This document shows positions 9,316 to 11,605 of a stretch of 12,669 nt of DNA, piece by piece. Made by a program: the position numbers and the translations under genes. Below the pieces are notes generated by a model that saw only the letters and a program-made list of their open reading frames with translations, had not been told where the DNA came from and did no database searches. The number at the start of each line of letters is the position of its first letter. The stretch's first letter is position 1. The stretch is taken from IMG/VR virus record IMGVR_UViG_638341196_000007; one strand, 5' to 3'. This DNA is from a virus. Its lineage: Duplodnaviria > Heunggongvirae > Uroviricota > Caudoviricetes.

Positions 9316-9397
9316 GTTTACTCCTATATTCTGTCATCTTCTTTAATGGACATCAGTAGACAGAAAGGAGATTAAACAAACCGGTGAATGGGTGATA

Positions 9398-9468
9398 GCG
9401 GATAAAAATAAAATATTTTTTTGAGAAGATTATCCGCTTTGAAATACACAGTAGCGTATTCAAAGCGG
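9398..9468. promoter_or_regulatory. overlapping inverted repeats in the alpA upstream region: GCGGATAA-N24(AT-rich)-TTATCCGC (9398-9437) and CCGCTTTGAAATAC-N8-GTATTCAAAGCGG (9434-9468)
   Basis: Repeats read directly; the central TTATCCGCTTTGAA segment can pair with either flank; lies between the cargo-gene stop (9513) and the alpA start (9315). Confidence 0.35.
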
Positions 9469-9512
9469 AAATCGCGAAATTTACTTAAAACGTTTACGTA
9501 GGATTTTGCTTG

Positions 9513-10394
9513 CTATAAATCTCTACTCATTAAATCAGATATTTTTATCAAGCTCATTTCTCTGTCTTTGTTTACATAAAGCTGAAGCAAGCGGGTGTAT
9601 CTCTCGCTTATAGATTCAAGTGCAAAAGGCTTTATTGATTCCTTAATAGCCTGCGTATCTTTCGGATCATCACTAAAAACCAAGGCAGAAATCATCGGAT
9701 TGCTCACTTCCTTACCTGACTTCTCACCCCAAATCAGCAGATCAACAATAGGTATCACTCTATTAGATATCAACTTCTGAAGGGTCTTTAATCCAATCCT
9801 TTTCTGAGCGACATGCTCTCTCTCTGGTACTTTTAACTCTTTTCGCCATAGAGGTAGAAGGTGAGTCAGGCTGGTAATAATTTCGTCATCAGTGGCGTCA
9901 TCTAAATCTATAGAAACGAGTATGATGTTAGGGGAACAATTACTTAGGTTTCCAGTAACACTCGCAAGCATAGCGTTTGCCTTGAGGTAGCAATCCTCTT
10001 CGTCTCTTTTAAAAAAGCCTTGATCTATCGATGAGAAAGAGTACATGGCCAGCTCTGAAAATGTTACTGGACTAACCCCCATAGCTGAAGATAATGAGGG
10101 AAGATCATCGTACTCATTTCTTAATGATGGGGCTTCATCATTTACTTTGCGAATAAATTCTTCGACCTCTTCCTCTTCTTCATTGAGAATGGTTAGGTTA
10201 GGATCGCCCGAAAAAATCCTTTCATATTTTATATCGTACTCTTCTTTGAATATAGCAGTGTCATCTTTTGCATGACGCAATAAAAAATCGCGCCACTCTA
10301 ATTCTTGAATCAAGTCCGGCAAGGTTAAATCATTTAAAAATTCATAATTACTAATATCAAACCATGCTAAATCTTGTTTTTTGGCTCTCACCAT
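9513..10394 (-). CDS. hypothetical protein (293 aa) encoded by a visibly AT-rich gene; candidate accessory/cargo gene between integrase and alpA
   Basis: ATG 10394-10392 with GGTGG SD-like sequence; TAG stop 9515-9513; acidic run NEEEEEVEEF; composition clearly more AT-rich than the flanking genes by eye; no recognisable catalytic motif. Confidence 0.7.
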   Translation of the reverse strand: MVRAKKQDLAWFDISNYEFLNDLTLPDLIQELEWRDFLLRHAKDDTAIFKEEYDIKYERIFSGDPNLTILNEEEEEVEEFIRKVNDEAPSLRNEYDDLPSLSSAMGVSPVTFSELAMYSFSSIDQGFFKRDEEDCYLKANAMLASVTGNLSNCSPNIILVSIDLDDATDDEIITSLTHLLPLWRKELKVPEREHVAQKRIGLKTLQKLISNRVIPIVDLLIWGEKSGKEVSNPMISALVFSDDPKDTQAIKESIKPFALESISERYTRLLQLYVNKDREMSLIKISDLMSRDL

Positions 10395-11605
10395 ACGCCA
10401 CCCCGCGCCCCTAATTCTGACGGCTATGCCAGCCCGTAGGGGTGTACGGGTTTTCGGGGATCAGCCTAGACATAGCCTATTCTTTGTTCGTCTACATAAG
10501 TCTACTACCATTGCTTAACACGGTCTATTCATACAGTTAAGCTCGTTTCCCAAACGAACCATGAACAACGTTCTCCTCCTTCTCCAGCGCATCCATATAG
10601 TCGGCATACCATTGAAGCATCTCCCGCCTTCCATCCAGATATTGCGCATGGTTGTATGTGCCACGAATTGAGTTCTTATCAACGTGAGCGAGCTGCGTTT
10701 CTATCCACGCGGTGTTATAGCCCTGCTCATGCAAAATCGTGCTCATAGTGTGCCGGAACCCATGACCAGTTACACGTCCAGCGTAGCCAATGCGCTTAAA
10801 CACTTGGTTTATGCTGGCCTCACTCATTGTTTTCCTTGGATCATTGCGCCCGGGAAACATAAGAGGGTAATTGCCTGTTATTTCTCTAATCTTCCCAATA
10901 AGCGAAAGAGCCTGATCAGACAATGGCACAATATGAGGCCGCCGCATTTTCATACGTGAAGCGGGTATCTCCCAGATAGCCTTGTTGAAATCAATTTCAT
11001 CCCATAATGCGCCACGTAGTTCGCCAGTCCGCAAGCCGGTGATAATCAGTAGACGAGCCGCCATAACAACCAATGCGCTTCTTGAGTAACTGGACAATGC
11101 CTTGAAAAAATCAGGTAATTCTTTAGCTGTAAGGAAAGGGTAATGATTAGATTCATGGCCTTGCATCGCGCTAGTAAGGTCTGGTGCAGGGTTATACTCT
11201 GCGCGACCAGTGACTATTGCATAGCGGAAAACTTCCCCGCACCGCTGCCTCACTTTTTTGGCTTTTTCTGTAGCACCGCGCCCCTCGATGCGCCGCAGCA
11301 CATTCAGAAGTTCAAGTGGTTTGATTTCGGCGATTGGTTTTTTGCCAATGTAAGGGAACACATCTTTGTTGAAGGCTTCGAGGATGTCTGAAGCATAACC
11401 AGCAGACCATTTTTTTAATTTGCTGCTGTGCCACTCAAGGGCAATATCTTTGAAGGTGTTGTTTAACTGCGTTTCCCGGGCAATCTTTTCCTCTCGTTTC
11501 GCTTCCATCGGATCGATACCACCAGCGATACCTCTTTTCGCATCTTCACGTTTTGCCCGAGCATCGGCTAGAGTAACCTCAGGATACACACCTAGGCTGT
11601 GTCCC

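Follow-up and report, generated by a model that had tools for sequence, protein, structure and literature searches.

E. coli MP1 harbors EcCIMP1, a phage-inducible chromosomal island (PICI) whose helper, the P22-like phage vB_EcoP_Kapi1, both induces and transduces it; its master regulator, the product of alpA, is inducible by the helper and self-activating (PMC11773190). In satellites of this type, excision and the lytic program are switched on by AlpA. In the ROD21-like islands, alpA is paired with a gene of the DUF6387 family, an arrangement that has been called characteristic of these islands (PMC6035254, PMC10763509); published gene tables hold the pair in ICEKp258.2 and in a Serratia island, and for ICEKp258.2 the DUF6387 protein is listed beside its AlpA regulator (PMC10763509). 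Here we analyze a stretch of 12,669 nucleotides, the IMG/VR virus record IMGVR_UViG_638341196_000007 (Caudoviricetes; the whole stretch is called the window below), in which a DUF6387 gene of 293 codons (9513-10394) lies between the integrase gene (int) and alpA of an EcCIMP1-type element. With a little less than even confidence, we tentatively assign the DUF6387 protein to the AlpA switch as a fast-evolving partner, and not to the cargo that benefits the host, because it accompanies alpA in many elements, was exchanged together with alpA, diverges fast, and has no recognizable effector or DNA-binding domain. To our knowledge, the way in which alpA is switched on by helper phages in Gram-negative phage-inducible islands is not understood, nor is the control of excision in ROD21-like pathogenicity islands such as ICEKp258.2 of Klebsiella ST258. 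A protein that is tied to alpA, evolves fast and lacks a known fold is a candidate for the missing control component.

Judged from its sequence, the element in the window is an EcCIMP1-type PICI. Positions 4-9306 are collinear with EcCIMP1 and 98.2% identical to it by BLAST, the integrase parts are 98-99% identical, and the genes follow one another in the order int, alpA, antA, ash, TOPRIM-DUF927 primase, DUF2824 and a gp7-like gene. The layout of a Gram-negative PICI is present, with int by a tRNA attachment (att) site, a co-oriented alpA and a primase, but without a complete complement of structural or lysis genes. Among 5,426 complete E. coli genomes, 82-87 have an identical stretch running from int through the DUF6387 open reading frame (ORF) to alpA, located at tRNA-Thr next to proA; many of these genomes are O111:H8. 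Two features distinguish the window from EcCIMP1, a block at about 9120-10590 and an insertion sequence (IS) within int. The window island and the experimentally studied EcCIMP1, differing in little beyond the DUF6387-alpA block, amount to a natural experiment.

The exchanged block, delimited by identity profiles against sister PICIs and by BLAST against EcCIMP1, is about 1.47 kb long and has a GC content of 0.40. It comprises alpA (9118-9315, minus strand; 65 amino acids; Pfam Phage_AlpA, E = 9e-20), the gene of the master activator and excision factor, together with the spacer upstream of alpA, DUF6387, the spacer on the int side, and about the last 18 codons of int. Along the sister island L003, identity stays at 95-100% as far as the alpA stop codon, at about 9119; it is 65-85% inside alpA, is lost through the ORF, and returns to 100% at about 10591, inside int. 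The window AlpA matches the DUF6387-linked AlpA of a Yersinia element at 91% identity; against those sister PICIs that have a 97% identical integrase, AlpA identity is only 74%. Since the swapped block includes both genes, DUF6387 and alpA arrived in this island as a unit. The original prediction for this stretch, made from its letters before any database search, had proposed a single cargo gene of separate acquisition. The block was indeed acquired apart from the backbone; it is not a single gene, however, as alpA belongs to it, and the AT-richness on which separate acquisition had been argued turns out to be no mark of it (see below).

The same prediction had suggested that the interval between int and alpA would prove a variable hotspot across related elements, and the comparison with sister elements confirms this. 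On a backbone that is 95-100% identical, the interval exists in at least five states: it is empty (427-428 bp) in EcCIMP1 and L027; it holds a 129-aa ORF in reverse orientation in L002 and L003, or an unrelated 239-aa ORF in forward orientation in strain ZF31 (L028); it carries the DUF6387 allele of the window with its own alpA; or, in E. coli 30COLEC (L017), it carries a second DUF6387 allele (60% amino acid identity) and a second alpA allele (78%) beside an integrase that is 98% identical. Homology of DUF6387 to the 129-aa ORF of the sister PICIs, to the 239-aa ORF of ZF31, and to yfjH of CP4-57 was considered and rejected, the hhalign probability being at most 1% for each. The 239-aa protein of E. 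coli ZF31 (L028, 1249-1968), for which there is no family match, is encoded in the same slot and orientation beside a homologous integrase, and the spacers that flank its gene, 143 and 215 bp, are similar to those in the window.

What DUF6387 retains from one element to the next is its place beside alpA. In a set of about 20 non-identical loci at 25-68% identity, alpA lies directly downstream of DUF6387, on the same strand and about 76-216 bp away, in all informative loci but one (five look-ups that ended on short contigs, L006, L014, L015, L025 and L026, were uninformative). The hosts include Escherichia, Yersinia, Yokenella, Gilliamella, Photobacterium, Klebsiella and Salmonella, in addition to metagenomic contigs, and the elements range from PICI-like satellites with a DUF927 primase to H-NS-bearing ROD21-like islands, a relaxase-bearing element, and a 17-kb circular element of Klebsiella. 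Even at 25-30% identity, in element types that are unrelated, DUF6387 keeps the position directly upstream of alpA. The adjacent integrase is missing at L010, L012, L018 and L044, and at other loci int and DUF6387 stand 1-3.9 kb apart, with further genes between them and the alpA adjacency kept. Those intervals hold recognizable cargo: a gp3-like packaging (small terminase) protein and an RnlA/RnlB toxin-antitoxin pair in the Gilliamella element L008 (6673-9806), a Panacea-domain (SocA-like) antitoxin with a 127-aa partner in the IMG/VR contig L036 (2064-2924), and a P63C protein in L042. The linkage of DUF6387 is to alpA, not to int, and the real cargo slot is the boundary between int and DUF6387. 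The notion that DUF6387 itself sits in an accessory cargo position is not supported: the gene keeps its place directly upstream of alpA, and the cargo lies further upstream.

Two of the loci deserve separate mention. The genes of the circular Klebsiella pneumoniae record pKp_Goe_795-4 (L019, 16,971 bp), which was submitted as a plasmid, include int, DUF6387, an AlpA-like gene and those for a capsid and a tail tape measure; DUF6387 overlaps the stop codon of int by 4 nt. The record resembles an excised satellite that forms capsids more than it does a plasmid. On the IMG/VR contig L038 (3923-4879), a 98% identical copy of the window gene is spread over three reading frames and is a pseudogene, with alpA 197 bp downstream.

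Divergence of DUF6387 is much faster than that of its neighbors. Between the window and L009, for example, DUF6387 is 33% identical, against 74% for AlpA and 57% for the integrase. We have dropped co-evolution of DUF6387 and AlpA as evidence, because the correlation between their identities is no stronger than that between AlpA and the integrase and indicates nothing beyond physical linkage.

The ORF at 9513-10394 shares the minus strand with int (10537-11589) and alpA (9118-9315). It begins with ATG, and this start is supported by homologues that align from residue 1. That the 293-aa ORF between int and alpA is the most AT-rich stretch of the window had been foreseen and is borne out. Its GC content is 0.380, and 0.361 at third codon positions (GC3); 882-bp intervals outside the region have a mean of 0.491, a standard deviation of 0.031 and a minimum of 0.397, so that the ORF falls about 3.6 standard deviations low and below every other interval of its length. 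Codon usage agrees: the root-mean-square distance in relative synonymous codon usage from the pooled neighbors is 0.56 for the ORF and 0.37-0.46 for genes of similar or larger size. The AT-richness is real and not a chance fluctuation. It is not confined to the ORF, as had been supposed; the low-GC block is wider, the spacer at 9316-9512 having a GC content of 0.34 and alpA a GC3 of 0.364. The spacer on the int side (10395-10536) has a GC content of 0.51 and hence is not AT-rich.

This composition does not, in our view, point to a recent acquisition. In 14 of 15 loci compared, from hosts with GC contents of 0.33 to 0.60, the DUF6387 gene is AT-richer than its surroundings, lying on average 8 GC points under its locus and 10 under the adjacent integrase. 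AT-richness is a trait of the whole DUF6387 family, and therefore no mark of recent arrival in this island.

The protein had been described as having no recognizable motif. It does belong to a recognizable family: it matches Pfam DUF6387 (PF19924) at 132 bits (E = 3.7e-38), against a curated gathering cut-off of 28.9 bits, and the match aligns residues 5-269 with positions 6-256 of a model that has 258, so that membership rests on the curated threshold and on a nearly full-length alignment. The protein is also 100% identical to RefSeq WP_000251023.1, which is annotated there as a DUF6387 family protein. An exhaustive profile search yielded 509 clusters of the family at 50% identity, all of them single-domain proteins of roughly 260-330 aa. 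(A word-indexed protein search with the broad alignment missed distant members, and that alignment was too divergent for scanning genome contigs; a scan with close sequences yielded only five loci.) In an alignment of 66 sequences, conservation is concentrated at the two ends, with W11, F12, Y17 and R35 conserved at the N-terminus and D169, L180, W183, R184, K207, D218 and W222 in the C-terminal part. Of these, Y17 and R184 are the same in every sequence, W11, F12, R35, D169, L180, W183, D218 and W222 are conserved in at least 89% of the sequences, and all ten are present in the window protein. Residues from about 36 to 160 are variable, and the acidic run EEEEEVEE (residues 72-79), which the original prediction had singled out, falls in this part and is not conserved. 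The window protein has a net charge of about -20 (35 K+R against 55 D+E); across the family the net charge runs from -22 to +10, and with a median isoelectric point of 5.3 the family is mostly acidic.

An AlphaFold model of the window protein is confident, with a mean local-distance score (pLDDT) of 93, and has no structural relative in the Protein Data Bank (PDB) or among viral models; a sequence-profile search of the PDB with DUF6387 gave no match at E ≤ 10. In PADLOC-DB v2, candidate families included, no family matched at E ≤ 1. PHROGs offered a match to a family of unknown function only, and NCBIfam none. We looked in the protein for an effector or sensor domain (nuclease, NADase, protease, membrane segment or NTPase) and for a DNA-binding domain, including a helix-turn-helix, and none was recognizable. 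The family occurs in 5 of 72,556 plasmid records, several of these being islands or misassigned contigs, and no genuine phage that carries it was found in the phage collections searched.

How might such a protein take part in the AlpA switch? In the resident state, the DUF6387 protein would be made with the integrase, or just downstream of it. It would then gate AlpA, either by holding it inactive through protein-protein contact or by controlling the expression of alpA via the spacer, and this gate on the self-activating AlpA circuit would be released by a signal derived from the helper. The variable middle third of the protein, residues 36 to 160 or so, could set which helper signal is read, and a hairpin past the DUF6387 stop codon could keep transcription of int and DUF6387 out of alpA. 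DUF6387 would thus act as a functional analogue of Stl, the master repressor of the Staphylococcus aureus pathogenicity islands (SaPIs), co-oriented with alpA and probably directed at a protein and not at DNA. We infer each of these parts: the action on AlpA or alpA, its direction (gatekeeper as opposed to co-activator), and what the middle third and the hairpin contribute. The role of a classical repressor is unlikely, because no DNA-binding fold was found and the family is mostly acidic; a mechanism at the level of protein is our conjecture. In a wider sense, DUF6387 proteins could represent a hitherto unrecognized class of switch gates, structurally without a solved relative: fast-evolving sensors or anti-activators that restrain AlpA-type master regulators and excision factors and set which helper phage or plasmid wakes a Gram-negative satellite or genomic island. 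We regard this extension as possible and somewhat doubtful.

The DNA around the gene offers places where such control might be exerted. The spacer between DUF6387 and alpA (9316-9512, minus strand, 197 bp) is the alpA leader and presumably contains the alpA promoter; in EcCIMP1, positions -449 to +50 relative to alpA make up the promoter region that the helper phage induces (PMC11773190). Within the spacer is a perfect 11-nt inverted repeat, TCCGCTTTGAA / TTCAAAGCGGA (9433-9469, minus strand), a candidate terminator, insulator or operator. As RNA it would form a long hairpin about 40 nt past the DUF6387 stop codon (-24.9 kcal/mol, z = -7.5), and none of 200 shuffled sequences folds as well; hairpins of other sequence occur at the equivalent place in L005 and L017 (z = -2.9 and -2.4). 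The hairpin at 9433-9469 does not match the terminator consensus, a clean run of T being missing. It could insulate alpA from transcription of int and DUF6387, and it could equally be an operator. The spacer between int and DUF6387 (10395-10536, minus strand) contains a short GC-rich stem, CCCGTA..TACGGG; over its full length, its structure does not exceed that of shuffled sequence (z = 0.39). Consensus scans of 9000-10800 for promoters and terminators found no more sites than in shuffled sequences, and none in the spacers.

The ribosome-binding site of alpA is predicted to pair with a CUCCU-like stretch upstream of it in 9 of 15 DUF6387-linked loci, where 5.5 of 15 would be expected from shuffled sequences, a marginal excess (P about 0.04). 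The leaders concerned are that of the window (9316-9400) and those of L005, L008, L009, L011, L012, L016, L017 and L019; the alpA leader of CP4-57 in K-12 has a partial pairing, at 6 of 10 positions. If real, the pairing would block translation of AlpA from read-through transcripts.

A number of observations weigh against a partnership with AlpA. EcCIMP1, which has no DUF6387, is inducible and mobilizable all the same (PMC11773190). Sister PICIs have unrelated genes, or nothing, in the slot that DUF6387 occupies here, as one would expect of a cargo hotspot. DUF6387 is present in only 82-87 of the 5,426 E. coli genomes, the int and alpA-antA backbone occurs without the gene in sampled genomes, and matches to the backbone reach 1,377 genomes. 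The correlation between DUF6387 and AlpA identities (Spearman 0.57-0.64) is no better than that between AlpA and the integrase (0.78). No DNA-binding fold was found in a family that is mostly acidic, and lasting AT-richness with fast evolution is typical of defense genes as well. Finally, one DUF6387 gene, that of L022/L023 (2146-4875), was found without alpA, the sole case of its kind. In L022/L023 an ankyrin-repeat protein is encoded before DUF6387 and an orphan D12 adenine methyltransferase after it, with a TraW-like gene nearby, a neighborhood that resembles the leading region of a conjugative element.

Several of these points would be natural if DUF6387 were stand-alone accessory cargo, the function that the original prediction had put forward. 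It would then be an anti-phage gene of the abortive-infection kind, or one that interferes with the helper, binding a phage protein and having no enzymatic effector. The slot next to the integrase varies among near-identical PICIs, the gene is patchy in E. coli (87 of 5,426 genomes), it is AT-rich and evolves fast, and it lies in a stretch of the island that includes the integrase, which is needed constitutively. Satellites are known to carry defense genes, RnlAB and Panacea modules sit in the neighboring slot elsewhere, and EcCIMP1-type islands affect superinfection by the helper (PMC11773190). Yet nothing in PADLOC matches the protein, even with candidate families included, and its confident model has no effector, membrane or nucleotide-binding domain; if it did turn out to serve defense, no known effector domain would be involved. 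Defense genes normally move among many contexts. DUF6387, by contrast, is fixed next to alpA in about 20 loci, even those where the integrase is absent or kilobases away; recognizable cargo in those elements lies upstream of it; and in the window it was exchanged along with alpA. We consider a cargo function unlikely for these reasons.

We think it improbable that DUF6387 serves site-specific recombination, as an architectural or directionality co-factor that works with the integrase and an AlpA-type factor at the att sites. Such a role would suit the fact that int and a gene for an AlpA-type factor are the only genes consistently common to all the element types that carry DUF6387; the 4-nt overlap with the int stop codon in L019, which suggests co-translation, would fit as well. 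So would the situation in ROD21-like islands, where the pair lies at the island end by att and the recombination directionality factor (RDF) SEN1998 binds both att regions (PMC8844411). Against this, EcCIMP1 excises and integrates without DUF6387 (PMC11773190), the protein is acidic and lacks a DNA-binding fold, and its distance from att varies, the site being upstream of int in PICIs and next to DUF6387 in ROD21-like islands. Least probable of all is an establishment or anti-defense factor expressed with the integrase on entry, for instance an acidic blocker of host restriction or defense, which the strong acidity of the window protein (net charge about -20) and the alpA-less locus L022/L023, beside a D12 methyltransferase and an ankyrin-repeat protein and near a TraW-like gene, might recommend, but which is hard to reconcile with a family in which acidity is not conserved, which is almost absent from the plasmids and phages where such genes abound, and whose model bears no similarity to known DNA mimics.

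The remaining features of the window concern the island as a whole. The C-terminal 350 codons of its P4-type tyrosine integrase (10537-11589, minus strand; Pfam Phage_int_M, Phage_integrase and Arm-DNA-bind_3) are 98% identical to the integrase of EcCIMP1. The N-terminal part of the same gene (12496-12669, minus strand), collinear with the intact integrase of L001, is cut by the end of the window. Between the two parts, an IS5-family element (11596-12502) interrupts the gene. The element has 99.8% identity to copies with the annotation ISSfl7-like, contains two overlapping ORFs of 149 and 171 aa (DUF4096, DDE_Tnp_1), and has about 10 bp duplicated at its junction with int. No complete E. coli genome in the collection searched shares this junction. 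With an IS inserted in its integrase gene, the copy of the island in the window is probably unable to excise on its own. An AT-rich stretch immediately 3′ of the primase gene contains GTTGGTTCA five times in direct orientation (1716-1791) and its inverted form, TGAACCAAC, three times (1834-1860); the repeats at 1716-1860 are iteron-like and likely mark the replication origin of the island. Positions 1-1091 encode a P22 gp7-like ejection protein (PF25688) and a DUF2824 head-morphogenesis protein. These are genes of the island and not of a neighboring prophage, and their products are homologous to EcCIMP1_017-019, which the authors of EcCIMP1 list as DUF2824/DNA-transfer-like. The presence of both genes fits the hijacking of a P22-like helper.

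With respect to earlier work, the DUF6387 annotation in RefSeq was already known, and the pairing with an RDF gene had been noted in passing for ROD21-like islands. New here are the finding that the pairing holds across satellites, islands and mobilizable elements; that the unit exchanged in EcCIMP1-type PICIs includes alpA, with the cargo upstream of DUF6387; that AT-richness is family-wide; and that a confident model is without a solved structural relative.

Set against described systems, the locus shares most of its backbone with EcCIMP1, including the tRNA-Thr site by proA and the antA, ash, primase, DUF2824 and gp7-like genes. It differs in having DUF6387, its own alpA allele and an IS-split integrase, where EcCIMP1 has a 427-bp gap between int and alpA (the small EcCIMP1_002 of its authors) and another alpA allele (74% amino acid identity). 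The ROD21-like (EARL) islands are alike in the pair itself: they combine an AlpA-family RDF gene with an "843 bp gene of unknown function" (KPNJ2_RS09320 of ICEKp258.2) of the same position, orientation and size class. A co-oriented pair of an RDF gene and a partner of about 843 bp is found in the window on a PICI backbone, in the EARL-like loci L018 and L044, and in the gene table of ICEKp258.2; from gene order and length, we infer that SEN1999 of ROD21 is a member of DUF6387 as well. The island versions are about 25-31% identical to the window protein, and their pair lies at the end opposite the integrase, whereas that of the window comes just after it. Hotspots for defense genes in P4-like satellites and PICIs resemble the locus in the variable slot beside int in near-identical elements and in the toxin-antitoxin cargo that adjoins it in relatives; DUF6387 is unlike their contents in matching no defense family and in having one fixed neighbor, alpA, across unrelated elements.

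Two further systems place a second regulator in this region. In the PIME1 elements, a LuxR regulator encoded in the "regulatory region" between int and alpA is required together with AlpA for excision (preprint 10.64898/2026.01.12.698999). As with DUF6387, a second gene in the int-alpA region is the hallmark of a subfamily; the PIME1 regulator, in contrast, belongs to the LuxR helix-turn-helix family, is encoded in divergent orientation, and has a function shown experimentally. The other system is that of the SaPIs. Their Stl master repressors are DNA-binding helix-turn-helix proteins whose genes are divergently transcribed and lie between the integrase and activator genes. DUF6387 has the same location between integrase and activator and is likewise highly divergent among similar islands, but it is mostly acidic, has no helix-turn-helix, and is co-oriented with alpA, not divergently transcribed, in all loci; the two are not homologous. 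What we propose is a functional analogy only, in which DUF6387 would serve as a helper-specific sensor. If DUF6387 does gate the AlpA switch, it would be a Gram-negative counterpart of SaPI Stl that works at the level of protein rather than by binding DNA.

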